DNA of 64,000 nucleotides from a phage, in the sequence record PZ357121.2; one strand, 5' to 3'. This document shows, piece by piece, positions 1 through 40,749 of the stretch. Every line of letters starts with the position of its first letter. The first letter of the stretch is position 1. The position numbers and the translations under genes are program-made. The notes beneath the pieces were generated by a model. The model did not search any database. It was not told the DNA's origin and saw only the letters and a list, made by a program, of their open reading frames with translations.

Positions 1-270
1 ATCAATTAATGAATCAACCACAAATTCATTTTCAGACCAGAAATATTTACGAGTGTTATATGCGTTATCTTTATACCATAATGGAACAAACTTAAATTCT
101 GGGAAAAGACGTTCGCATTCTTTAATATCAGATGCATTACGTGGATATGTAATCACATCACCCGGATTAGCACGGTGCAAATGAAGTTGGAAGTTGCCAT
201 CCTTAAGGATAGCATACTGTCCAGTTTCATAAGACCGCATACTCAAGATAGGTACGCGGAAAATAGCCAT
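1..270 (-). CDS. hypothetical protein, 5' part only (gene runs off window start); sits where T4 has beta-glucosyltransferase
   Basis: Manual minus-strand translation from ATG 270..268: MAIFRVPILSMRSYETGQYAILKDGNFQLHLHRANPGDVITYPR...; SD AAGGA upstream; TAATG overlap with stop of upstream gene. Confidence 0.5.
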   Translation of the reverse strand, partial: MAIFRVPILSMRSYETGQYAILKDGNFQLHLHRANPGDVITYPRNASDIKECERLFPEFKFVPLWYKDNAYNTRKYFWSENEFVVDSLID

Positions 271-986
271 TAGTCAAGGAATCCTTTAACATAATCAAAA
301 TCACGGTCAAACACATGGGCACTTACCATGGTATGAGTATAATCACCAACTTCTACACCACATTCTTTAGCGATATAATGAAGTAATTTTCCTTGGAGAT
401 AAAAATCCAACTGCATAACAACAGCACAGTTCTGAGAACGCATATGACAGTGGGTATAAAGCTTACCATCACGAATATAATAAGTCACTGAGTCAGTACA
501 TGGATATTCAAGTGTTTCGTCCGAATCAAGCAAAGCCTGATCTGAACTTTCAAGAATTTGAAACACAACTCTTCGTGAATTAGGTTTCTCTTTAAGTTCT
601 TTGAGAAGAGCTGGTAACTGGGCCGCAATTCGTGGACCATAGAAAGTGTTGAAGTTTGCAGGCAAAGCGTCTGATTTAGGTTTAGAAATAAATTTAGCAA
701 CGTTAGGATATGCCTTAAATGCTTCTTCTGCGTCGGTACCACCAGAAATCATAAATTTCCAGAAGTCTTCGGCATATTCATAAGAGATGCGGTTAATACG
801 TGGGTCGGTCATTTTGAATGATGATGGAGTGTCAACAACTACTGTCATAGACCCAATTTCATTACAACGTCCAATACGAGAATCAGTTACGAATTCCGGG
901 TTTTCTAAAATTTCACGATTGACTGCTTTAAATGCGGATTGAAAATCTGCGGCTTTGATATATTTCATTGTGTTATGTTTTCCCAT
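270..986 (-). CDS. thymidylate-synthase-fold pyrimidine hydroxymethylase (dCMP hydroxymethylase, gene 42 position)
   Basis: 238 aa; TS/dCMP-HMase motifs NSRRVVFQI, catalytic Cys in YPCTDSV, HMRSQN; SD GAGGT 5 nt before ATG. Confidence 0.8.
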   Translation of the reverse strand: MGKHNTMKYIKAADFQSAFKAVNREILENPEFVTDSRIGRCNEIGSMTVVVDTPSSFKMTDPRINRISYEYAEDFWKFMISGGTDAEEAFKAYPNVAKFISKPKSDALPANFNTFYGPRIAAQLPALLKELKEKPNSRRVVFQILESSDQALLDSDETLEYPCTDSVTYYIRDGKLYTHCHMRSQNCAVVMQLDFYLQGKLLHYIAKECGVEVGDYTHTMVSAHVFDRDFDYVKGFLD

Positions 987-1004
987 GTTTACCTCAATAC
1001 AGTT

Positions 1005-1030
1005 ATTATATACTCAATTCATAAAGCTTA
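1005..1030 (-). promoter_or_regulatory. candidate MotA-type middle promoter for the hydroxymethylase gene
   Basis: Minus strand reads AAGCTTTA (MotA-box-like) then 11 nt then TATAAT, about 20 nt upstream of ATG at 986. Confidence 0.3.
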
Positions 1031-1106
1031 TTTGAATTTCTTAGCGATGTTGATATAACGTAAAGCTTCAGCATCGATACTTCCAAGAACACTATGAAGA
1101 AATGCA

Positions 1107-1265
1107 TCAGCGTAGTATTCTAGTTGAACAGGTTTTAATCACTTTAGCCGCTTTAGTTTCAAACAGGCCCTTATGGGCCTTTTTAAGAATTTGTTCGTTG
1201 CTGTTAATTTTCGTAGTCAAAATCTCTTCGTTAAGTTGGTGGTTAAAAGTTTTTCTAGAAATCAT
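1107..1265 (-). CDS. small hypothetical protein (52 aa), below ORF-track cutoff
   Basis: ATG overlaps stop of upstream gene (ATGA); SD GAGGT 8 nt upstream; manual translation MISRKTFNHQLNEEILTTK... Confidence 0.3.
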   Translation of the reverse strand: MISRKTFNHQLNEEILTTKINSNEQILKKAHKGLFETKAAKVIKTCSTRILR

Positions 1266-2422
1266 TCTGGGTACCTCAAAGCGTCGTCAGAGTTAGTTAT
1301 ATCAATAATAGATATAGAATTTTCTGATAACCCATTTTTAGATAACTGACGTTTATAATATCTTTCACAATATGTACACGTCGTCCCGCAGATTTCATTA
1401 GCACAATCGAAATCTGGATGTTTGAACCACCTTTTTTCTAAAAAGCCATCTAACAAAGAGGTTTCAATATTTACCGTATGTGAAAACTCAGTTTCGTTTT
1501 CAAGAGTGAAAATGGTCTCTAAAGGCTTCCACAATTCCAACAAATTACCTTCAAATTTTTCAGAAGCATAAGCTTCAAGAACTTTCAAAATGTAGTCTGT
1601 GCTACCTGTACGTCCCGAAACTTTAAATTGGGTGATACCAATATCGTTATAAAGTTTCAAATCTTGTGGACGAACAAAACGAGTTCTCAACCAGTTAAAT
1701 GGGTCTGTATCACGAGCTTTAATACAGTGCTGCATTGGATATCCATTTAAGGATTTGGCATCATCTACTGTAACATCGGTGCTATGGAAAATATAGCAAG
1801 AGTCACGATAACTACAATGTGTTGTATACCCTTTACCAGCATTAGAACAGAACTCATTTACAAGAACTTCAAATATTATATTGTTCTTATTGCAAAACTC
1901 TGCTGCACGCTTCAGGAAAGAAACTGAACGGTTCTTATGAATTCCACAGCAGACCTTTTTGATATTATATTGGTCATGCAAGTATTTGATTTGAGTTACA
2001 GCATCGACATGTAGAATTGTTGAAACTTCAATCTCAATGTCTTTATTGACTTCACGAACAATTTCCATAACAACAGGGTTAGCGATAGTAATACGCCATA
2101 CGCCTATTGACCAAAGATACTGAACATAATCCTGAATAGCTTTCTTCTTCCACTCAACTAGTTCTCTTTTTGAACCAGGATTTATCGTGTTGAGTGTATA
2201 GTTAAAGCAAATACCTAATTCGTTACAACGTTTAACGTAATCTTCTAACATCTTTTTGTCAACGTCGGGAAGCCTAAAATCAGGTCTGGCTGCTACAAAA
2301 GCCATTTCTCTTGTAGAGCCGTATACTTCGTTTATCAAGCTATTAGGATAAGTTTTATTGAGCTCTACGATTTTATCAAGAAGAGCTAAATCAAAATTCG
2401 TTCCGATTTTAAAGGTATTCAT
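1262..2422 (-). CDS. peptidase-U32-like TIM-barrel protein with Cys cluster (putative Fe-S enzyme), function unknown
   Basis: 386 aa; U32-like segments (KIGTNFDLALLDKIVEL, FNYTLNTIN, EVLVNEFCSNAGKGYTTHC); C-terminal CANEICGTTCTYC. Confidence 0.75.
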   Translation of the reverse strand: MNTFKIGTNFDLALLDKIVELNKTYPNSLINEVYGSTREMAFVAARPDFRLPDVDKKMLEDYVKRCNELGICFNYTLNTINPGSKRELVEWKKKAIQDYVQYLWSIGVWRITIANPVVMEIVREVNKDIEIEVSTILHVDAVTQIKYLHDQYNIKKVCCGIHKNRSVSFLKRAAEFCNKNNIIFEVLVNEFCSNAGKGYTTHCSYRDSCYIFHSTDVTVDDAKSLNGYPMQHCIKARDTDPFNWLRTRFVRPQDLKLYNDIGITQFKVSGRTGSTDYILKVLEAYASEKFEGNLLELWKPLETIFTLENETEFSHTVNIETSLLDGFLEKRWFKHPDFDCANEICGTTCTYCERYYKRQLSKNGLSENSISIIDITNSDDALRYPE

Positions 2423-2476
2423 TTTTGCATCTCGCGTTAATTGTTGCGATGGTTTTTGCAGGTCTTACTTAAATTA

Positions 2477-2863
2477 TTATAGATTCGGTTTATATGATTT
2501 AAATGTTTCGAATTCGCCTTTATTCATAAGAGCTTTGAATTCGTCAGGACGCATAGCTTTGTCGTCGATAATCCAATCATATACTGGTTTATGTGTTAGC
2601 AAATTATGGTACTTCAATCCAATGTTTGCCAAGTTCTGAATCAGACTTGGGAGAATGTCAATTGCTATACGACCAGGACCGACTGACTTCATACCGCGAG
2701 CAGTGTAAAGCGTTATGGTATGCCCTGCATCATACAGGGCATTAATGGCAGACACCATTTCGACGTCTGGTTTGAAGTTCACGTAATCACGATTGTTATT
2801 CCACTCTGTTATACAATCATCGACATCAAAACAAAGATTAAGCATGTTTTCTACACGGTGCAT
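2477..2863 (-). CDS. HAD-superfamily phosphatase (small, GmhB/HisB-N-like)
   Basis: 128 aa from ATG 2863 (TAATG overlap with upstream stop); HAD motifs FDVDDCI, TLYTARG, HKP, IIDD. Confidence 0.75.
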   Translation of the reverse strand: MHRVENMLNLCFDVDDCITEWNNNRDYVNFKPDVEMVSAINALYDAGHTITLYTARGMKSVGPGRIAIDILPSLIQNLANIGLKYHNLLTHKPVYDWIIDDKAMRPDEFKALMNKGEFETFKSYKPNL

Positions 2864-4548
2864 TAGATTCGTTCCCATTGATGAGTGATATCGCCACCGA
2901 TTGGACGATAAGAAACACCAGTTTCTTTATCAGTTAGTACCCATTTACCAGGATTTTTTGTAATCAGAGTAGCCGTTACAGGTTCTGCTACATCATAACT
3001 AATAGTGCCGTCCTGAAGTACACGGCCCATGTTACGTAATTGCTTAGTCAGAAGTTCCATACCTTTATAATATGCGGCTACCGCTTTAAGTGGATTATTC
3101 TTGAAATAACCACCTAATGCAATCCAGATAATTGCCACTGCCAAATGATGATACTCGTTAAACGAACTCATCTTTCCATATTTGTAAACTAACGGATTGA
3201 TGTTAATAGTCACATTACAAGTTGTTTCATCAATAGTAAACTGTCCCCAAGTCGGATTAGCGTTGAATTCATCATAACCTGAAACAGCGTAAAGCACTTT
3301 AGCTTCATCATACAATTTTGGCCCATAAATCTTGGTTTCACCAAAATATCCACGAGGGTCGATAAACTTGACTTCACCATTATCAGTAATCATAGTATTA
3401 CTGAAGTTCGGGTCACCATGAATAACAGAGTACTGTCCCTGAGAACGGTTATGATAACGAATAAGGTGTTCTAAAGCTTGTTTCAACATTGGCTTCAGAC
3501 GCCCAATCTTAGTGTAGTTCACATGTGTGATTTTACCAAATGAATCAATCAATGGTTGAATACTTTCACAACGATCAATAACTTTAGTATAGAATTCTTT
3601 AGTGAAATCACGACGAACAGTTTCAGGACTTACAAAATAAGTGTCTGTGCTGAATTTCAGTGCATCTAAAATTGCATCAACAATTTGTGGACGAGCAAGA
3701 CTTGATTTGGATTTAATATATTCAAATGCCGGCTTACCTTTAATGCGTTCCATTTCAAAGTTATTTTCATTAACAGAAACTAACTGAGGAACTGAATCTG
3801 ATTTCACTTTAAGATACCATGAAATCTCATCTTTCTGAAGAGCTCGGCCCTGTTCGGTTAATGCGAATTTAGTTACAGTTTCTTCACCAATTTCAACTGC
3901 ATTAAAACTACGATTAAGTTCACGAACTTCATGAGCTTTTTCAAGTTTAGGCATATCACCTAAATCAATTAGATTCATAAGCTCTGATTTATTGAATGCG
4001 CTGCCGTAAAGGAATTCTACGAAATCACGTCCTTTGCAGTATTCATGAATTTCCTCATCAGTAGAACCCATATAGAATTCCCAGTCTTTGAACTGATAAA
4101 TTCCTACAACATTACCACCTGTTGAACCTACATTAGTGATATTTTCACCGTCGAAATTATATCGACATTCGTCACCCTTAACATAGATTGCGTTAACATT
4201 CCAAGACCACGAACCAAAATCAGGAATAATATCACACCAGTTAACAATTACATTATGGCCGTCTAAATCTTTGTGCAATTTAGCAAGAGCATAAGCAGAA
4301 CCATACGCTTCATCAACTGTACGAATAGTCACATTGAACCCTTCTTGCTCACAATAAGCTCGAACAGTTTCAGCAAATTTTGAATGAACTACTACAATAA
4401 TTTCATCTGCGCCAAGGTCAGAATAAATTGTATACAAATTGCTCAGAATAGTGTCTTGTTTATAGTTAACAAGCACCTTAGGAATATGATGCGTTATTGG
4501 ATACAAACGAGTTGCCAGTCCAGCACCAAGAATAACAGCTTTTTTCAT
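2863..4548 (-). CDS. bifunctional sugar-1-phosphate nucleotidyltransferase / sugar kinase
   Basis: 561 aa; N-terminal NTP-transferase motif ILGAGLATRLYPIT..PKVLV; C-terminal APH/choline-kinase-fold motifs IHGDPNFSN and FIDPRGY; SD GAGGA. Confidence 0.85.
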   Translation of the reverse strand: MKKAVILGAGLATRLYPITHHIPKVLVNYKQDTILSNLYTIYSDLGADEIIVVVHSKFAETVRAYCEQEGFNVTIRTVDEAYGSAYALAKLHKDLDGHNVIVNWCDIIPDFGSWSWNVNAIYVKGDECRYNFDGENITNVGSTGGNVVGIYQFKDWEFYMGSTDEEIHEYCKGRDFVEFLYGSAFNKSELMNLIDLGDMPKLEKAHEVRELNRSFNAVEIGEETVTKFALTEQGRALQKDEISWYLKVKSDSVPQLVSVNENNFEMERIKGKPAFEYIKSKSSLARPQIVDAILDALKFSTDTYFVSPETVRRDFTKEFYTKVIDRCESIQPLIDSFGKITHVNYTKIGRLKPMLKQALEHLIRYHNRSQGQYSVIHGDPNFSNTMITDNGEVKFIDPRGYFGETKIYGPKLYDEAKVLYAVSGYDEFNANPTWGQFTIDETTCNVTININPLVYKYGKMSSFNEYHHLAVAIIWIALGGYFKNNPLKAVAAYYKGMELLTKQLRNMGRVLQDGTISYDVAEPVTATLITKNPGKWVLTDKETGVSYRPIGGDITHQWERI

Positions 4549-4729
4549 GTTGTGGTCCTCATTGGTAAGTAGGAGTATTGTACACTATTCTAGTTAAAGC
4601 ATTCATACTTTGCTTGTAGTCCAATCATAATCCATCCGATTATAAGAGTCGGAATCATTACTGGAGCCGTTAAGCTCCAGTAGATAGTCATGACAAGCAT
4701 CAATAGTAAAAGTCCTATTGTTATTGCTT

Positions 4730-5365
4730 TCATTGTTCGCCTCGTAACATGGCACCTAGTGCACCACCAGGGTGGAACTTAAGGAAGTCATTAGAGGTAA
4801 ATCCACGTTCAGACGAAAGGTTGATAGCAAACGTATCGATAAGCGCTAACAACAATGTAGTGGACATGGTCGGAGCCAGAGAATTCTCATCAACCTCTAC
4901 TGCGATGCCTGTACAGAACGTATAATCAAAAAGAGCTTCGTATTCTTGTGGAATGTCCGGGTTACAATGCAACAGAATCTGTTTGACGTTCGGACGAATC
5001 ATTTTAAGATGCTTAGCCACGCCTATCATTTCTTCAGTTTTACCAGAACGACTAATATGAATCAACACATCATTAGGCGCAATGAATCCTGCATCACCGT
5101 GAGAATAATGCCCAGTGTTCAAGTACATACTCGGGATACCAAGTGAAGCAAATGTCTCAGAAGCTTTAGTTGCAATATTAGCATTCTTACCAACACCTGT
5201 AATAATTACTCGGCTTTCATAATTACTAAGTCCTGGGCGTCGAAGAGTTTCTAGAATAGCATTATAACGAGCAGGGTTTTGACTAATTACTTTGGCCATA
5301 GCGGCCAAAGAAGAAGCTTGTTTTATGATTGCGTCAATAGCGATAGTAATAGGAGTAGTTTTCAT
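4730..5365 (-). CDS. SIS-domain arabinose-5-phosphate isomerase (KdsD/GutQ/KpsF type, no CBS domains)
   Basis: 211 aa; motifs GVGKNANIA, HGDAG, ISRSGKTEE, LAPTMSTT, FHPGGALG parallel E. coli KdsD. Confidence 0.85.
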   Translation of the reverse strand: MKTTPITIAIDAIIKQASSLAAMAKVISQNPARYNAILETLRRPGLSNYESRVIITGVGKNANIATKASETFASLGIPSMYLNTGHYSHGDAGFIAPNDVLIHISRSGKTEEMIGVAKHLKMIRPNVKQILLHCNPDIPQEYEALFDYTFCTGIAVEVDENSLAPTMSTTLLLALIDTFAINLSSERGFTSNDFLKFHPGGALGAMLRGEQ

Positions 5366-5405
5366 ATTTCTCTCATTTAATTAGTTTACCGTCCATGTCA
5401 TTATA

Positions 5406-8117
5406 TCAAAAATCGAACATATCGAACAGAGATGCTTTCTTCTCGTAATCGAGTTTCGCTGCTGATGTGAATCCTTCAAGTGGTTTAATAAATGTCTTCT
5501 CAAGGAGAACAGTGTAGTCCATCCAATGAAGTACATCGTCTTTAATTAAATCTGTGATTTCAGTACCAGAAGGCCATGCGATACATTTATCACCGAATGG
5601 GTTTCCTTCACGTAAAGGCAGAACATATACTTTTTCACCTTCTACAACTTGCGGTGCATCGATATTACCTTTGATAGCCCGGTTATACGTCAGAATTCCA
5701 CGAATATGGAACGGGCATTTAGGACCAGGGAATCCACCTACATCATATTTAGCAATGTTATTCGCAGAAGATACCGACGCGATGCTAATATAATTCAATT
5801 GACGGAATTCTTTTTCAAACTCTTTAAAATATTCTTGTAATGATTCTTCACCTTCTTGAAGCATACGACGAATACATTCTTTAAGAGCTTTCTGTACTGC
5901 TTTAGGAGTCGAAGATTTCTGAGTCTCTAGACCCATGATTTTGAGTTTAGGCTCAGCGTATCTGGTTCCTTCCATATCCCACACGTTTAATGCATAACGT
6001 TTCTTACCAGTCCAGAATCCACCAATACCTTTAGAACCGAGTGGAGGACCAGCGATAGCTTCTCGGTCCATGAACATTAAGTGTTGTTTATTGTTCATGT
6101 ATTCACACATTTCACGGAAACCTCTATCAATAGCAGGTTCCATACGTTCACGTGCAAACTTATCTAAGAAGTCTACCCAATGGTTGGTATCACGGAATTT
6201 AGATTCACCAACCTTATCGATAATTTTATCAGCAGATACGTAAATAGAGTCCGTATCACCATAAAGAACGAAAGCTTCACCTTCCGTACCACAAACTTCA
6301 TTCAGATATTCATTAACTTTACGTTCAATCCACTGTAAAGCCATTTGACCAAATGTTGTGATTGCAGTAGCATTACGCAAATCATAATAACGGAACCAAA
6401 CGTTGCCAAGTGCACCATAAAGTGAGTTGATAAGCAATTTACGGTTAATTTGGGCAGTCATACCTGCAACTTCAGTACGTTGAGCTCTAAACAACATTTC
6501 GTTAAGAGATTTAGCGGACAACTTTTTAATCTTTTCTTTAATCTCATCACTGAAGTCGAAACGATAATCAACATCTAATGGTTCGTCAACAGAAAGATTA
6601 GGATTATGCAATGCCTCTTTAATTATTTCACCATTACGTTGAGCTGCAAGCATGTAACCTTTATGTTCTTTACGTTGATTAAAGACCTTAGTGATTTCAG
6701 TTGGAACAACACCGTCACGGTCTTTATAATACATCATGCCGTTAGGAGAGCAACTATACACATCTGAAGGACGTTCAGCAACAGCGTTAATATAATCATG
6801 CAATGGAGCTACTTTAAACGTTCCTGCTATTGTTTCTGGGCTAATATTCACTTGGCGAATAATACTTGGATACAGAGATGTAAGGTCGAAACTCATTACA
6901 TATTTGTATCGATTTGGAATAGGTTCCTTAACAAAAGCGCCGGGATAAGGTTGAACCGGGTGAGAACGACCTTGTGGAATCACCTTGTTCTGCTCTTTAA
7001 GGCTATTAAAAATAATAGCATCCCATGTTTTAATTGGGCTAAACACAGATTGAATCTGAATTTTAGCATAATAACCCATGTCCAAACTCAAGTTGATGAA
7101 CTGACGCTTAGCATCAATTTGCAATACACGATACACGTCGATAATGTTATAAGAAATATATCGTTGGTGATTGCTTTCACGAAGCTTAGAAATAGGGCCG
7201 TCATATTTCAGTTTACCAACGTTCAATTCAAATTCTGAAATGTAATCCAGAGAATATGATGGTTGATTGGTAAAAGAGAATTTTTTGTAAAGGTCAATGT
7301 AATCAAGAACAGAGATACCGAACAATGTAATGATTTCACGAGAACCATACATGTTTTCGATAACTTTAACACGAGTTTTACGATGTGGTGACAAACGTTT
7401 CGCAGTAGATTCGCCAAAAATATTCTTGATTCGGTTATACACATATGGAATATCAAATGACTCAACGTTCCATCCAGTCAAAATGACAGGAGTTTTTTGT
7501 TGCCAGAAGTTGAGATATTCCATCAACAATTCTTTTTCGTTATCGAACGGCATATAAATGATTTTATCGATAATTTCGGATGGAACTTCATCACCACCTT
7601 GTTCTTGAAGCTTAGCCGCAATTTCAATAGACCATTCTTCTACATTACCATATGGAGAATTCAATAGATCAAATACGTAGAACCTGTCATCAATTGAGTC
7701 ATAATGGGTGATAGCATCAATTGGATGTTTTGCTTGTGACGGCTCAGGGAACCCATCTGGAGATGTTACTTCGATGTCGAAGTTAGCCACACGAATTTTT
7801 GTATGGTCGTATTTAATTTCATAGTTATAAGTGTCAGACAAATACGCCAATTTGAAATCGTCCATGCCAAGTGCTTCAAGTCCGATATCTTCCATGCGTT
7901 TAATCCATTGGGAGGCATCACGCATATTAGCGAACAACTTACGAGTACACGGCTTACCATAGATATCGAAATATTTCGTAGCCTGACTTTCCGGACAATG
8001 AGCAAACAGTGATGGTTTATATTCTACTTCACGAGTACGTTCACGGCCGTTAGAATCGATGTAACGTTCAAAAATTGAATCACCAATCTGTTCAACCGTT
8101 AAGTAAAATTCTTTCAT
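5406..8117 (-). CDS. 43: DNA polymerase gp43 (family B, with 3'-5' exonuclease)
   Basis: 903 aa; N-terminus MKEFYLTVEQIGDSIFERYIDSNGRERTREVEY; exo motifs FDIE, YNIIDVY; pol motifs DLTSLYPS, YGDTDS; matches RB69/T4 gp43. Confidence 0.97.
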   Translation of the reverse strand: MKEFYLTVEQIGDSIFERYIDSNGRERTREVEYKPSLFAHCPESQATKYFDIYGKPCTRKLFANMRDASQWIKRMEDIGLEALGMDDFKLAYLSDTYNYEIKYDHTKIRVANFDIEVTSPDGFPEPSQAKHPIDAITHYDSIDDRFYVFDLLNSPYGNVEEWSIEIAAKLQEQGGDEVPSEIIDKIIYMPFDNEKELLMEYLNFWQQKTPVILTGWNVESFDIPYVYNRIKNIFGESTAKRLSPHRKTRVKVIENMYGSREIITLFGISVLDYIDLYKKFSFTNQPSYSLDYISEFELNVGKLKYDGPISKLRESNHQRYISYNIIDVYRVLQIDAKRQFINLSLDMGYYAKIQIQSVFSPIKTWDAIIFNSLKEQNKVIPQGRSHPVQPYPGAFVKEPIPNRYKYVMSFDLTSLYPSIIRQVNISPETIAGTFKVAPLHDYINAVAERPSDVYSCSPNGMMYYKDRDGVVPTEITKVFNQRKEHKGYMLAAQRNGEIIKEALHNPNLSVDEPLDVDYRFDFSDEIKEKIKKLSAKSLNEMLFRAQRTEVAGMTAQINRKLLINSLYGALGNVWFRYYDLRNATAITTFGQMALQWIERKVNEYLNEVCGTEGEAFVLYGDTDSIYVSADKIIDKVGESKFRDTNHWVDFLDKFARERMEPAIDRGFREMCEYMNNKQHLMFMDREAIAGPPLGSKGIGGFWTGKKRYALNVWDMEGTRYAEPKLKIMGLETQKSSTPKAVQKALKECIRRMLQEGEESLQEYFKEFEKEFRQLNYISIASVSSANNIAKYDVGGFPGPKCPFHIRGILTYNRAIKGNIDAPQVVEGEKVYVLPLREGNPFGDKCIAWPSGTEITDLIKDDVLHWMDYTVLLEKTFIKPLEGFTSAAKLDYEKKASLFDMFDF

Positions 8118-8176
8118 TTAATTTCCTTTAGACGAGTTATTGTCTTTTGTTTGTTGATGAACTTATTATACTCCAA

Positions 8177-8194
8177 ATGGGACCGAAGTCCCAT
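8177..8194 (-). promoter_or_regulatory. stable hairpin with UUCG tetraloop between regA and gene 43; TATAAT follows on minus strand
   Basis: Plus atgggaccgaagtcccat (7-bp stem); minus strand reads ATGGGAC-UUCG-GUCCCAU then TTGGAGTATAAT. Confidence 0.35.
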
Positions 8195-8198
8195 TGCT

Positions 8199-8567
8199 TT
8201 AATTACCAATTGTATATTTTGCTTTCAAAGTCCAGTCATCTTTCTGTTTAAAAGAGATAACACGGAAGTTATTAGTCAGGCCAAACAGATCTTCACGAGC
8301 AGAGTCTTCAATAACAATCAACCCCCAGTCTTCAAGCAACTGAGCAATCGAATCACGTCGCTGATAGTCTTCACCATCAATATCAACCTGACGTCCGTCC
8401 ATACGCAGCATTTCTTTAAAGTGGACGATGTAGTATTTACCTTGCTTTTGGAGGATATGACAGGACTGATAAAGAACTTTATCCTTGTTATTAGCGATGC
8501 CCATACGGGTCAAAGTCTCTTTGACTTTCAGAAAATCTTCAGGGTTCTTCAATTTAATTTCAATCAT
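8199..8567 (-). CDS. regA: translational repressor RegA
   Basis: 122 aa from internal ATG at 8567 (MIEIKLKNPEDFLKVKETLTRMGIANNKDKVLYQSCHILQ), matches T4 RegA length and sequence. Confidence 0.9.
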   Translation of the reverse strand: MIEIKLKNPEDFLKVKETLTRMGIANNKDKVLYQSCHILQKQGKYYIVHFKEMLRMDGRQVDIDGEDYQRRDSIAQLLEDWGLIVIEDSAREDLFGLTNNFRVISFKQKDDWTLKAKYTIGN

Positions 8568-20478: not shown

Positions 20479-20949
20479 TTAATCATGTTTCCACACCCCA
20501 TCGGTATTTGACCAAAGTCGCTGATTATCTGATCCTCGCCACAGCTTTTTAGTCGGAAGATTTTTCTCATACTTCCCATCAATAATAACATCAACATATT
20601 TAAGCATTTCTAGTTGTTTAATATCTTCAAACTTATATCCTGTCCACAACCAAATGCTTTTATTGGGATAAAGATTTTTTACTGTTTGAGCAATGCAATG
20701 AATAACATCTCGGTTATCAGGATAGAGAGGGTCACCTCCGGTTATAGTTAATCCTTCTATATAATCATTATTCAAACATTCAATTAATTGTTCTAGTGTT
20801 TCACCAGTGAATGGAACACCATTTCTAGCATTCCATGTTGATTTATTATAACACCCTTCGCATTTATGCAAACAACCTGTAACGAAAAGAACGACCCTGC
20901 ATCCAGGACCATTCACAAAATCGCAAGGATAAAATCTATCATAATTCAT
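20479..20949 (-). CDS. nrdG: anaerobic ribonucleotide reductase activating protein NrdG (radical SAM)
   Basis: 156 aa; CxxxCxxC motif CLHKCEGC; directly downstream of nrdD. Confidence 0.9.
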   Translation of the reverse strand: MNYDRFYPCDFVNGPGCRVVLFVTGCLHKCEGCYNKSTWNARNGVPFTGETLEQLIECLNNDYIEGLTITGGDPLYPDNRDVIHCIAQTVKNLYPNKSIWLWTGYKFEDIKQLEMLKYVDVIIDGKYEKNLPTKKLWRGSDNQRLWSNTDGVWKHD

Positions 20950-22237
20950 TGGTGTTTAACCCTATGCATGATTTCTTTATTTTTACCGAGATTAAATCCG
21001 CGTTCGTTCGGATTTCCCAAATAACCACATGTTCTTCTTATTGTGTTCATCTTTTTAGGATCAGTTTCTCCACAAACTGAACAAACAAATCCGTTTTCAG
21101 TAGGAGTCATTTCATGGGTACTTCCGCATGTAAAACATTTATCTACTGGCATATTAACACCAAAATAATCTAAATGTTGTGCAGCATAATCCCATACGGC
21201 CTCAAGACCTTTTAGGTTATTTTTCATATCAGGAAGTTCAACATAAGAAATGTGACCGCCGGTCGCTATGAAATGATATGGCGCTTCACGAGAAATCTTT
21301 TCAAACGGAGTAATATTTTCTTCTACTGAAACGTGGAAACTGTTAGTGTACCAGCCTTTATCGGTAACATCCTTTACACTTCCATATTTTTCTGTATCGA
21401 GTTTACAGAAGCGATAACAAAGGTTTTCAGCAGGAGTCGAATATAAACTAAAAGCAAAACCGGTTCTTTCAGTCCACTGCTTAAGATGAGCATTCATTTT
21501 AGTTAAAATTTCTTGTCCAATATCACGACCGACAAGAATATTCAATTCGTGAATACCAATGTATCCTAAGGACACTGAACTTCTACCGTTTTTAAATAAC
21601 TCAATTATATCGTCATCAGGTTTAAGACGAACCCCGAATGCACCTTCTTGGTAAAGAATAGGAGCAACAGTCGCTTTAACACCCTTTAAAGAACTAATTC
21701 TACACATCAAGGCTTCAAAACACAGATCCATTCGTTCATTAAACAACTCGATAAATTTCTGTTCATTGAACTGTGTTCCAATATAAGAATCTAATGCGAT
21801 GCGAGGAAGATTCAGCGTTACAACACCGAGATTATTACGTCCATCAAGAATTTCATTACCAGTCGAATCTTTCCATACGCTCAAGAAACTACGGCAACCC
21901 ATTGGAGAAACTGGAACTGAAGAACCGGTAATAGCTTTATTATTCTTAACCGAAATAATGTCAGGATACATTCTTTTGCTTGCGCATTCTAACGCAAGTT
22001 GTTTAATATCATAGTTCGGATCATCTTTATAAAGATTAACACCTTCTTCAACAAACATAACAAGTTTAGGAAAAATAGGAGTTATTCCATCACGACCAAG
22101 ACCTTTAATGCGGTTTTTAAGAATTGCCTTCTGAATAATTCGTTCAGTCCAGTCAATTCCCGTACCAAATGTAATTGTCACAAAAGGCGTTTGTCCATTA
22201 GAGCTGAAAAGTGTATTTACTTCATCATTATATTCAG
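20946..22237 (-). CDS. nrdD: anaerobic ribonucleoside-triphosphate reductase NrdD, exon 2 (5' boundary inferred)
   Basis: Glycyl-radical motif RRTCGYLG, C-terminal Zn site CFTCG..CSVCG; joins exon 1 to give about 607 aa; junction chosen by alignment to E. coli NrdD (DAFQ..EY..VNTL). Confidence 0.8.
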
Positions 22238-23276
22238 CATGAGTCGCAAATTCATGCCCGTTTATATGAAACAACAAAATTTGGATAGTCCATAGATATG
22301 CAACGTTCTTTTATAGTGCTAGGATGAAAATTTAGCGCTTTAGCTGCTTCTATATAAGACGTATACTTAATACCGTCAACAACCACATATTCAGGAACTT
22401 TATGAATAGTAGTCTTAATACTCAAAACAAGAGGATGAGTTTCGACTTCACTTTCAGTGCAATTTAAATATTCCGCTGCTTTTTTAAAACTTCTAAAAGT
22501 TTTATTTTTAAGCTTTATCGATACTTGTTTTTTACTTTTTCGACTATTGATATTATTTTGCACATGTTCCTTAGATCTTCCGTTTTTAGCATAATATTCA
22601 GCTACAGAAGATTTTATATTGTTTTTATGAGATTCGGATAACACTTTACCCTTATGAGCATCTCTTAATTTTTGAATATGTTCTTCAGTATCCGGATGCT
22701 TATAAAACTTTTTACCGCCTATGGATTTATTTAAACATTTTTTGCTATAAAAATATTTACGTATGACCTCTTCTTCATGTTTTAATGCATCTTTATAACT
22801 ATCAAATGTTTTTAAAATTATCCATTTAGTAGGTGTATCAGTTTTTAAGCGTTCATTTATATACTTAGATGACGTTGTGTAAGTTTTCCAGTTTGTGGGC
22901 TTGTTTTTAATTGTTCTAAATTTTTTATAACCGATATAAATGTCACCATTAGAAAACTTAACTAAGTATGTAAATGCGTCTTTATCTTTTATTTTAGTAC
23001 AACGTCTTTTTATCCATTTCATTGTTTCACCTCGTATTCATAAGATAATCTTATTTATACAAGATGACTGCTGCATGTCGCCATGCAGATTAGACTATAT
23101 CTTCATCTTTCGATGCCGGCCGTTTCGAATAGCATTAGCTTCTATTCTACACCGCTACATTCATCACGGTTAGTCGTTAGGCATTTAGTTCAAAAGAACA
23201 TTTAGCACGGGATTGTCTACTAGAGAGGTTCCCCGTTTAGACCGGTTTTACATGAGCCTGAATTAAATTAACTCAT
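22238..23276 (-). mobile_element. group I self-splicing intron in nrdD (boundaries inferred, about 1039 nt)
   Basis: Minus strand carries the T4-intron core CTAAACGGGGAACCTCTCTAGTAGACAATCCCGTGCTAAAT just after the exon-1 end; proposed exon 1 ends in U, intron ends in G. Confidence 0.7.
22252..23022 (-). CDS. intron-encoded GIY-YIG homing endonuclease
   Basis: 256 aa; GIY-YIG core FTYLVKFSNGDIYIGYKK, NUMOD3-like SESHKNNIKSS, C-terminal HTH; sits 3' of the intron core. Confidence 0.8.
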   Translation of the reverse strand: MKWIKRRCTKIKDKDAFTYLVKFSNGDIYIGYKKFRTIKNKPTNWKTYTTSSKYINERLKTDTPTKWIILKTFDSYKDALKHEEEVIRKYFYSKKCLNKSIGGKKFYKHPDTEEHIQKLRDAHKGKVLSESHKNNIKSSVAEYYAKNGRSKEHVQNNINSRKSKKQVSIKLKNKTFRSFKKAAEYLNCTESEVETHPLVLSIKTTIHKVPEYVVVDGIKYTSYIEAAKALNFHPSTIKERCISMDYPNFVVSYKRA

Positions 23277-23808
23277 ACGCCTGGAATGCATCGTATACGT
23301 CTTTTTCTGTTTTAGATTGGGCATAATTCAACGCATCAGCGATTTGCCATTTTTCTGCATCCTCAATATGTTTTGCATAGGTGCGTTTAACATAAGGAGA
23401 AAGAACTTTATCGACATTCGCAAATGTAGTTCCACCATACTGATGCGAAGCAACTTGTGCAGTAATTTGTGCCATAATTGCAGTAGCAACACCAATAGAT
23501 TTAGGCGTTTCAATTTGAGCATTGCCGAGCTTAAATCCGTTTTCAAGCATTCCTTTTAAATCTACTAAACAGCAATTAGTAAAAGGCAATGATATACTGT
23601 AATCTAAATCATGAAAATGAATTAATCCAACATTATGGGCATTTACAATATGACTTGGAAGAATACGACAAGCGATATGTTTAGAAACAATACCGGCCAT
23701 TAAATCTCTTTTTGTTGGAAAGACGCGAGAATCTTTGTTGGCGTTTTCTGTATTTAATTCTTTATCTTTATTTGAAATAAAATTTAAAACATCTTTTTCT
23801 AAAGACAT
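23277..23808 (-). CDS. nrdD: anaerobic ribonucleoside-triphosphate reductase NrdD, exon 1
   Basis: ENANKDSRVFPTKRDLMAGIV...AQVASHQYGGTT aligns with E. coli NrdD after its ATP-cone; ORF-track stop at 23263 lies in the intron. Confidence 0.8.
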
Positions 23809-40387: not shown

Positions 40388-40749
40388 TATAGACTCTCAG
40401 TAAAGGTGCGAGCGATAACGTCACGCTGCTGTTCCGGAGTCAGAGAGTTAAAGCGAACTGCATAACCGGATACACGGATGGTCAGCTGCGGATATTTTTC
40501 CGGATGCTTAACTGCATCTTCCAGAGTTTCACGACGCAGAACGTTAACGTTCAGATGTTGACCACCTTCAATTTTAACTTTAGGTTGATGTTCAATTTCA
40601 ATTTCACGGGCATTCAAACCGTAGAAAATTTCTGGGTCTACAATAGCGTCTTCTTTAAAAGTCTTAGAGACAATAATCCGGGCTTGAGTACCGTCTTCAA
40701 AATAAATAGTGCCTTTGTGTGTGCCTTCAAGAATTTGATATGCTTTCAT
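40387..40749 (-). CDS. autonomous glycyl-radical cofactor (GrcA/YfiD-like)
   Basis: 120 aa; C-terminal glycyl-radical domain ...[32 protein letters not shown] as in E. coli GrcA (from memory). Confidence 0.85.

Follow-up and report, generated by a model that had tools for sequence, protein, structure and literature searches.

A U32-family protein as a putative oxygen-independent pyrimidine hydroxylase in the arabinosyl-5-hydroxycytosine cluster of an RB69-type phage

How does a phage that replaces its cytosines with an oxygenated base go on doing so in a host without oxygen? The question is raised by the left end (positions 1 to 5405) of a 64,000-nucleotide stretch of phage DNA from sequence record PZ357121.2 (the window), where genes for base and sugar-nucleotide chemistry extend up to the DNA polymerase gene gp43 (5406 to 8117), which bounds the cluster; all cluster open reading frames (ORFs) between 1 and 8117 lie on the minus strand. 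Although the published hydroxylase of such phages depends on O2, the enteric bacteria that they infect live in an anoxic gut, and since the phages destroy dCTP, replication is impossible for them without the modified base. The cluster also encodes a U32-family Fe-S protein of 386 amino acids (aa) (1262 to 2422; the homolog of RB69 gp50), which we propose, with a probability of about 0.55, to be an O2-independent, prephenate-dependent pyrimidine C5 hydroxylase that most likely acts at the level of dCMP. By analogy with characterized members of its family, it would be the first U32 hydroxylase of a DNA precursor, converting dCMP and prephenate to 5-hydroxy-dCMP (5hodCMP) without O2. That the protein belongs to the U32 family, keeps conserved cysteines, has recurrent gene neighbors, and is under selection has been shown, and from this we infer its activity, its substrate, its prephenate dependence, and its anaerobic role. 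The hypothesis is testable and, as far as we have seen, apparently unpublished.

The base that the cluster would modify

Over positions 1 to 5405, the closest relative of the window is Escherichia phage 308Ecol101PP, a Mosigvirus (the genus of RB69), with 98.8% nucleotide identity, and 153 phage records are at least 95% identical to the region. Domain and ortholog matches make it very probable that this region is the core of an arabinosyl-5-hydroxycytosine (ara-5hoC) hypermodification cluster of an RB69-type phage. Such clusters are known from RB69 (gp45 to gp55), HY126 (Afh), and DLP3 (gp76 to gp83); the window comes from the same genus as RB69 and has the same genes in the same order. It differs from RB69 in that its nucleotidyltransferase-kinase fusion is one intact 561-aa ORF, which the RB69 GenBank record splits, and in that its gp49-like gene is frameshifted.

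In RB69 and the Acinetobacter phage DLP3, cytosine is replaced by mono- and polyarabinosylated 5-hydroxycytosine (Lee et al. 2026 NAR, PMC13326640). The arabinose is ether linked straight to C5 by way of 5-hydroxycytosine, on the evidence of nuclear magnetic resonance, mass spectrometry, and 18O2 labeling, and RB69 gp48, a thymidylate synthase (TS) homolog, binds flavin and yields 5hodCMP with oxygen that comes from 18O2 (PMC13326640). The 5hodCMP is then phosphorylated, and the pre-made 5hodCTP is incorporated into DNA (PMC13326640). Arabinosyl-5-hydroxycytosine has been shown in the virion DNA of RB69 and of Mosigvirus NP (PMC13326640, PMC13390438).

The gp48 homolog in the window (270 to 986, 238 aa) matches Pfam Thymidylat_synt with 57 bits, differs from the solved chain 9IQC at 4 of 238 residues (~98% identity), and is likewise ~98% identical to 9IR2 and 9IQU. 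It carries the D169N, N177D, and L143E signature published for 5hodCMP synthases (MRSQN...QLD, LEYPC), in which the catalytic Asp (D169 in ThyA, D179 in T4) is replaced by Asn; the window protein reads MRSQN where T4 gp42 reads MRSND. Its identity to T4 gp42 is 25%, compared with 62% over 901 aa for the gp43 polymerases, which bears out the remark in a preliminary description of this DNA, made from the sequence alone, that the TS-fold protein has diverged further than the replication proteins have. By orthology with RB69 gp48, the window protein is predicted to be a flavin- and O2-dependent 5hodCMP synthase rather than a hydroxymethylase.

The preliminary description had taken it for a hydroxymethylase and the base for 5-hydroxymethylcytosine (hmC), such that NDP-arabinose would decorate hmC made by a diverged gp42-type dCMP hydroxymethylase. 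The TS fold, the gene 42 position, and a report of arabinosyl-hmC in RB69 (Thomas et al. 2018, PMC6024577) agree with that view. For RB69, however, it has already been refuted, in that the sugar sits on 5-hydroxycytosine through a direct ether link (PMC13326640) and the older hmC assignment has been called erroneous (PMC13390438). In the window protein itself, Asn stands where T4 gp42 keeps its catalytic Asp, and neither the proposed base nor the proposed enzyme activity is upheld; we consider arabinosyl-hmC extremely improbable here.

In an ara-5hoC pathway, the TS-fold enzyme, with flavin and O2, would hydroxylate dCMP at C5, the resulting 5hodCMP would be phosphorylated, and gp43 would incorporate it, after which arabinosyltransferases would modify the DNA. 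The first of these begins at the left edge of the window, which cuts the gene after its first 89 codons (4 to 270; a homolog of RB69 gp46:47). Its ATG overlaps the stop codon of the TS-fold gene (TAATG), and its N terminus is 100% identical over 89 aa to a 299-aa protein of 308Ecol101PP whose gene follows that of the TS homolog. That gp46:47-type proteins act as arabinosyltransferases is taken from Table 1 of PMC13326640.

The slot between gene 43 and uvsX is the one that holds the hmC system of T4, and in both phages the gene for a DNA glycosyltransferase comes after that for a TS-fold enzyme that modifies dCMP. The T4 order is 43, imm.1, imm, 42, beta-gt, so its 42-43 interval does hold only small genes, as the preliminary description had said. 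The chemistry differs: flavin- and O2-dependent hydroxylation in the window, as predicted, versus folate-dependent hydroxymethylation in T4. The sugar donor differs as well, in that the window phage must make UDP-arabinose whereas T4 uses the UDP-glucose of its host.

The U32 protein and its family

The U32 protein of the window scores 42.4 bits against Pfam Peptidase_U32 (cutoff, 22.4). Its AF2 model (pLDDT 93, pTM 0.91) has as its top Foldseek match in the PDB the U32 protein 5D88 (E = 1e-6; target-normalized TM-score, 0.69), followed by generic TIM barrels. A sequence search of the PDB gave no match, and no entry for RlhA, TrhP, or UbiU/V was among the matches of either the fold search or the PDB sequence search. 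By hhalign, the phage U32 family is nearest to RlhA (E = 8e-6, 206 columns) and then to TrhP, UbiU, and UbiV. Aligned with these four, the window protein shares C209 and C233 with all of them and C203 with almost all; in UbiU, RlhA, and TrhP, the equivalents are the first three cysteines of a CX6CX15-16C stretch. Among 98 U32 homologs, nine cysteines are invariant, namely C158, C192, C203, C209, C233, and those of a C-terminal CX4CX3CX2C motif (C340, C345, C349, and C352). A library-wide search with the family returned 1,710 clusters at 50% identity with E ≤ 1e-3, and 491 with E ≤ 1e-30.

Characterized U32 proteins act in O2-independent hydroxylations; prephenate has been shown to be the oxygen donor in the UbiU/V pathway and proposed for the family, and UbiU/V are the anaerobic counterparts of the flavin- and O2-dependent hydroxylases UbiI/H/F (PMC10990095). 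Database annotation of E. coli gives RlhA as the 23S rRNA 5-hydroxycytidine C2501 synthase and TrhP as a tRNA wobble-base hydroxylation protein. Both thus target C5 of a pyrimidine, as we propose for the U32 protein of the window. There is also a parallel in the pairing of enzymes. UbiI/H/F stand beside UbiU/UbiV, and the O2-dependent TrhO stands beside TrhP, which is a U32 protein and putatively uses prephenate; the window likewise encodes a flavin/O2 hydroxylase and a U32 protein, putatively with the same product. By analogy with UbiU/V, RlhA, and TrhP, the phage protein would provide a second route to the 5-hydroxyl, oxidizing the pyrimidine ring with oxygen from prephenate and releasing phenylpyruvate and CO2. 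Its putative activity would differ from that of characterized members in having a DNA precursor as its substrate, which would be unprecedented, and the protein differs from them in its extra C-terminal CX4CX3CX2C motif.

The U32 protein is the most conserved or nearly the most conserved protein of the cluster across genera. Against KpNIH-6, its identity is 86%, compared with 72% for the polymerase, 77% for the TS homolog, and 44% for the fusion; against phiP4-3, it is 83%, compared with 73% for the TS homolog and 51% for the fusion. The sole protein to exceed it is the HAD phosphatase in the comparison with Entb_45 (90% against 87%; nonsynonymous divergence [dN], 0.06 against 0.12). Between genera, dN is 0.12 to 0.14 for U32 and 0.16 to 0.35 for the polymerase. 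Since between-genus synonymous sites are saturated (proportion of synonymous differences [pS], 0.70 to 0.80), recent transfer cannot explain the identity of U32, and only dN and within-genus ratios were used. The latter (dN/dS of 0 to 0.02, comparable to those of the polymerase) indicate purifying selection.

This conservation bears on the possibility that the protein is a real peptidase, or a host takeover gene that merely happens to be located in the cluster. Database labels for its homologs (peptidase or collagenase) suggest the former, but the label is historical, and every U32 member of E. coli belongs to a hydroxylation pathway. The conserved position, tight translational coupling, and strong purifying selection of the gene also argue against either idea. 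So does the company that U32 keeps in unrelated phages, where it again occurs with nucleotide and glycosylation genes; we regard this explanation as very improbable.

Gene neighborhoods of U32 relatives

Homologs of the U32 protein, all at least 80% identical, occur in 222 phage records, and the hosts listed are Escherichia, Klebsiella, Shigella, Serratia, Proteus, Yersinia, Enterobacter, Providencia, Edwardsiella, Pectobacterium, and Shewanella. All of these genera are facultative anaerobes, and Acinetobacter is an obligate aerobe. No Acinetobacter record is among the U32 matches, although 57 of the 377 phage records that carry the fusion enzyme are from Acinetobacter phages; DLP3 is without U32, and its HAD gene directly abuts its TS gene.

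Across most other genera, the gene adjoining U32 (75 to 124 aa) encodes a genuine AroQ chorismate mutase (CM; CM_2, 41 bits). Of the phage records, 56 have this CM within the cluster and next to the TS homolog; it was also found at 12 of 15 T4-like viral loci. In every inspected locus, it lies between, or immediately beside, U32 and the TS homolog, with the order U32-CM-TS in Entb_45 and KpNIH-6 and CM-U32-TS in a metagenomic locus (L008; L numbers denote loci).

A second set of neighborhoods came from ~38 non-T4-like loci on viral contigs of 8 to 466 kb, of which 8 to 21 kb each was covered (up to 10 kb per side). The U32 relatives on these contigs are 40 to 58% identical, and a TS homolog is within the covered sequence of only one locus (L037). 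Three arrangements of U32 with glycosyltransferase (GT) genes recur: GT, SIS, AfhE-like fusion, (DAHP synthase), U32 in L007, L044, L045, L047, L050, L051, L054, L056, L060, and L066; GT, U32, TAGT, dUTPase/DCD, and, further on, UDP-galactopyranose mutase in L011 and L043; and GT, U32, PolIII-alpha, and, further on, dCMP deaminase in L038, L042, L052, and L065. In the megaphage-like contigs L004 and L010, a dCMP deaminase gene is followed directly by U32, and in L004 the two overlap. Among the 124 nearest U32 neighbors at 27 loci, the Pfam families counted were Thymidylate_kin (9), DAHP_synth_1 (7), CM_2 (5), and SIS (4), with dUTPase, DCD, deoxynucleoside kinase (dNK), dCMP deaminase, UDG, TAGT, and other glycosyltransferases as lesser ones. 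All five CM_2 matches are the C-terminal domains of DAHP-synthase-CM fusions that adjoin U32 (L047:8411-9433, L048:9-971, L050:7302-8357, L051:8332-9387, and L061:11079-12197), and DAHP synthase stands alone in 2 loci; the DAHP synthase of L007 is of type I-beta (E = 3e-70) and is not a KDO8P synthase (E = 3e-17). To our knowledge, shikimate pathway entry enzymes are unusual in phages.

Two unrelated phage groups therefore couple this U32 subfamily to prephenate supply, enzymes that act at the dNMP level, and DNA glycosylation genes. The preliminary description had placed the U32 gene and its three neighbors in one nucleotide-sugar module. Their place in an arabinose hypermodification cluster holds good; for U32 the tie to the sugar pathway does not, its associations pointing to base hydroxylation.

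These neighborhoods also bear on the possibility that the protein is a prephenate-dependent hydroxylase that works on a polynucleotide (replicated phage DNA or host rRNA or tRNA) rather than on dCMP. The nearest characterized relatives do modify RNA polymers, but RlhA (653 aa) and TrhP (453 aa) have long C-terminal extensions that the 386-aa phage protein lacks. Its recurrent neighbors (Tmk-like kinases, dCMP deaminase, dUTPase/DCD, NT5C, and dNK) act at the dNMP level, and the phage route incorporates 5hodCTP that has been made beforehand (PMC13326640). A polymer substrate therefore seems unlikely.

A further alternative makes the U32 protein an accessory reductase, acting on a sugar or a heterocycle or serving the TS-fold hydroxylase as a flavin reductase. 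Table 1 of PMC13326640, the only place in that paper where gp50 appears, labels it a "sugar or heterocycle reductase" without further discussion; the gene lies close to that of a flavin enzyme, and an Fe-S protein could transfer electrons. In E. coli, however, the TS-fold enzymes of both RB69 and DLP3 are active when U32 is absent (PMC13326640); DLP3 and the Dhakaviruses lack it entirely, and reductase activity is not known for any U32 member (PMC10990095). Nor does a reductase explain U32 relatives that lie beside CM or DAHP synthase genes with no TS homolog in the covered sequence; we judge this role to be quite unlikely.

A dCMP hydroxylase of the U32 family would let the phage go on replacing cytosine in a facultative host without O2, where the flavin enzyme would fail, such that in enterobacterial T4-like phages U32 would be the anaerobic twin, or backup, of the TS-fold synthase. 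Lacking a CM of its own, the window phage would depend on host prephenate. By a rough estimate, ~62,000 cytosines per genome and ~100 progeny would call for ~10^7 hydroxylations per infection, which is on the order of the prephenate flux of the host. Demand of this size could explain why many of these phages carry a monofunctional CM or a DAHP-synthase-CM fusion, and the fusions could raise the supply of prephenate. In many uncultured phages, U32 alone may supply the 5-hydroxypyrimidine handle on which DNA is glycosylated.

A pairing of aerobic with anaerobic enzymes would fit the lifestyle of the window phage because it also carries genes for an anaerobic ribonucleotide reductase (nrdG and nrdD, 20482 to 23808; nrdG, 20482 to 20949) and for a GrcA-like protein. 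The latter, a GrcA/YfiD-like autonomous glycyl-radical cofactor (40390 to 40749, minus strand), is 100% identical in a relative and suits anaerobic or microaerobic growth. The NrdAB and NrdDG enzymes of T4-type phages are a precedent for keeping an O2-dependent and an anaerobic enzyme for one step of dNTP supply, albeit with different families and a different reaction.

Several points weigh against assigning anaerobic dCMP hydroxylation to the U32 protein. Its substrate (dCMP, DNA, or another) is read from its neighbors only, and the identity of the phage family to characterized members, none of which has yet been reconstituted as a hydroxylase in vitro (PMC10990095), is only ~20%. The fourth canonical Fe-S cysteine has no aligned counterpart in the phage protein; the invariant C192 or the C340/C345/C349/C352 group could substitute for it, and a relocated fourth ligand and a second metal site are possible. 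The absence of U32 from Acinetobacter phages is confounded by phylogeny, and in the Dhakaviruses of E. coli the cluster is present but U32 is not. A phage-CM hidden Markov model found no CM in six frames of the whole window, and the Mosigviruses are without one. At the non-T4-like loci, a TS homolog could lie elsewhere in the genome, beyond the covered 8 to 21 kb. RB69 gp48 and a kinase suffice for 5-hydroxycytosine in aerobic E. coli (PMC13326640); U32 is therefore not needed in air, which fits a backup role and an unrelated role equally. The discussion in PMC13326640 mentions two other routes of pyrimidine hydroxylation, citing the papers on RlhA and on ho5U, and draws no link to gp50. A full-text search found no paper that links phage U32 or CM to 5-hydroxycytosine, but He et al. 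2026 and Mahler et al. 2025 may address the gene.

If U32 is nevertheless a prephenate-dependent hydroxylase, the O2 paradox would be resolved, and the chemistry of the family would reach from RNA and quinones to DNA precursors. The odd CM and DAHP synthase genes of phages would be explained, and glyco-DNA based on 5-hydroxypyrimidines would be predicted to be common among phages outside the cultured collection. The family, which has yet to show hydroxylase activity in a reconstituted in vitro system, would also gain in dCMP a soluble small-molecule substrate.

Some U32 neighborhoods had features of their own. An HAD hydrolase gene lies between the DAHP-synthase-CM fusion and U32 in L047, L048, and L050, and in Marfavirus and Bragavirus a Tmk-like kinase gene stands between HAD and U32 rather than downstream of the glycosyltransferase gene. 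The context of L005:8001-15428 (also of L006) is bacterial- or prophage-like, with a dockerin GH43 gene close by; here U32 has as neighbors NT5C, a PnuC-like transporter, a deoxynucleoside kinase, a radical-SAM/SPASM protein, and a nucleoside deoxyribosyltransferase, and a second, faint U32-like protein is encoded near the U32 homolog. This region may be an island for hydroxylation and salvage at the nucleoside level.

Sugar-nucleotide enzymes and other features of the window

The preliminary description had placed four enzymes (U32, HAD, fusion, and SIS) between gp43 and the TS-fold gene, and their ORFs, motifs, and domain matches are all found there, at the coordinates that it gave. It had also read from them a pentose version of ADP-heptose synthesis, which matches the steps that PMC13326640 relates for phage HY126. 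As related there, in the reconstitution of He et al. 2026, the arabinose-5-phosphate isomerase API (gp55) makes D-arabinose-5-phosphate (Ara5P) from ribulose-5-phosphate (Ru5P), the kinase domain of the AfhE-type fusion converts Ara5P to the 1,5-bisphosphate (Ara-1,5-P2), the AfhF-type HAD phosphatase (gp51) strips the 5-phosphate to leave Ara-1-P, and the N-terminal domain of AfhE produces UDP-D-arabinofuranose. The route from Ru5P through Ara5P, Ara-1,5-P2, and Ara-1-P to NDP-arabinose is thus correct. It is no longer a new proposal, having been published for RB69, HY126, and DLP3 (Lee et al. 2026 NAR; He et al. 2026 Nat Chem Biol; Mahler et al. 2025 Cell Host Microbe). The pathway accounts for the protection of DNA against restriction and CRISPR in RB69-type phages.

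In the window, the SIS protein (4730 to 5365, 211 aa; RB69 gp55 homolog) would divert Ru5P to Ara5P. Its translation contains the motifs GVGKN, HGD, ISRSGKT, LAPTMSTT, and HPGGALG, and it matches Pfam SIS (41 bits; cutoff, 25), NCBIfam KpsF/GutQ (TIGR00393, E = 2e-32) and KdsD (E = 1e-30), phrog_5670, and PDB entries 3etn, 5uqi, and 2xhz (E = 5e-25 to 6e-19). The match to the curated equivalog model covers positions 2 to 153 of 268 only and, at 112.7 bits, falls below the cutoff of 203.7; the protein lacks the full-length SIS plus tandem CBS architecture and resembles the single-domain 3etn type. At the corresponding locus in PhiKpNIH-6 (L017; Klebsiella, Marfavirus) and JS10 (L003; Dhakavirus), no homolog of the window SIS protein is detectable, and these clusters presumably rely on host KdsD/GutQ for Ara5P.

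The AfhE-type fusion (2863 to 4548, 561 aa; RB69 gp52:53 homolog) is 57% identical to DLP3 gp82. Motifs read in its translation are GAGLATRLYPIT, HGDPNFSN, and FIDPRGY. The N-terminal half matches NTP_transferase (39 bits; cutoff, 21) over residues 3 to 99 and PDB entries of the LicC, GalU, and GMPP type over residues 3 to 96. The kinase half (residues 308 to 409) gives sub-threshold matches to APH, fructosamine kinase, and EcKL and has Brenner-type HGDPNFSN and IDPRG motifs. Its orthologs predict a sugar-1-phosphate uridylyltransferase at the N terminus, which would make UDP-D-arabinofuranose, and at the C terminus an Ara5P 1-kinase of the APH/choline kinase fold, which would phosphorylate C1. 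The AfhF-type minimal HAD phosphatase (2477 to 2863, 128 aa from the annotated ATG, with the longest ORF beginning at 2878; RB69 gp51 homolog) would take off the 5-phosphate. It shows FDVDD (the DxD motif) and IIDD, matches TIGR01689 (E = 4e-13), and is ~98 to 99% identical to the solved chain 9IQW (E = 8e-88) in an end-to-end alignment.

The logic is that of ADP-heptose biosynthesis (GmhA, HldE, and GmhB), in which an SIS isomerase, an anomeric kinase that gives a bisphosphate, an HAD phosphatase, and a nucleotidyltransferase act together, and in both systems the kinase and the transferase are joined in one protein. HldE combines a PfkB-type kinase with a cytidylyltransferase-type domain, whereas the kinase of the window fusion has the nonhomologous APH/choline kinase fold and its transferase is of the RmlA/GlmU/MurU type. 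The Pfam and NCBIfam matches of the fusion are to families of these types and not to HldE, and the only heptose-related match was to the guanosyltransferase HddC (E = 9e-5). The sugar, carrier, and acceptor also differ, being a pentose furanose, UDP, and DNA in the window system.

Two small genes lie among these. The first, of the RB69 ORF049c family (1028 to 1265), is frameshifted, with a 52-aa ORF at 1107 to 1265 and a tail at 1028 to 1111 in another frame, and it overlaps the stop codon of U32. Positions 1 to 46 of 79 in phrog_8601 are matched by the 52-aa ORF, and positions 1 to 79 by the frame-corrected 79 aa, with 143 bits. RB69 and most Mosigviruses keep the gene whole, and a sublineage has it in two pieces, a form shared by several independently sequenced phages (DCP548, PNJ-6, TU01, and JS09); the frameshift is real, and the family is phrog_8601. 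The idea that the ORF at 1107 to 1265 is a frameshifted CM remnant was rejected, since neither it nor the frame-corrected 79 aa gives a CM_2 signal, the hhalign probability is 0.2%, and the two genes are neighbors in Yersinia phages, where a 38%-identical phrog_8601 homolog lies between U32 and CM. The second, a largely hydrophobic 47-aa ORF (4590 to 4733; phrog_3610), probably encodes a small membrane protein and probably stands outside the pathway. It lies roughly where T4 has imm and shows no significant similarity to Imm of T4 or JS10; the label "putative phosphosugar isomerase" that it bears in OR062945 is clearly wrong.

In a promoter and terminator scan of 1 to 8300, the counts were not above those in shuffled sequence, so no operon boundaries can be claimed. 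One sigma-70-like site (TTTAAA-16-TATAAT, 2476 to 2503, minus strand) lies 54 nucleotides upstream of the U32 start, within the 3' end of the HAD gene, and may be due to chance, given that promoter-like sites are no commoner than in shuffled sequence.

Away from the cluster, nrdD is interrupted (20946 to 23808, minus strand), whereas that of the closest relative is intact (605 aa). Rfam shows no group I intron at the interruption, which contains a 256-aa ORF (22252 to 23022) with a GIY-YIG-like N terminus and matches to homing endonuclease PHROGs (phrog_314, E = 4e-29).

Public labels for homologs of the proteins encoded at 270 to 5365 are widely misleading. Besides the peptidase and collagenase labels of U32, homologs of the 5hodCMP synthase appear as "thymidylate synthase" or "dCMP hydroxymethylase," those of the HAD phosphatase as "phosphoheptose isomerase" or "haloacid dehydrogenase," and those of the fusion as "GlmU."

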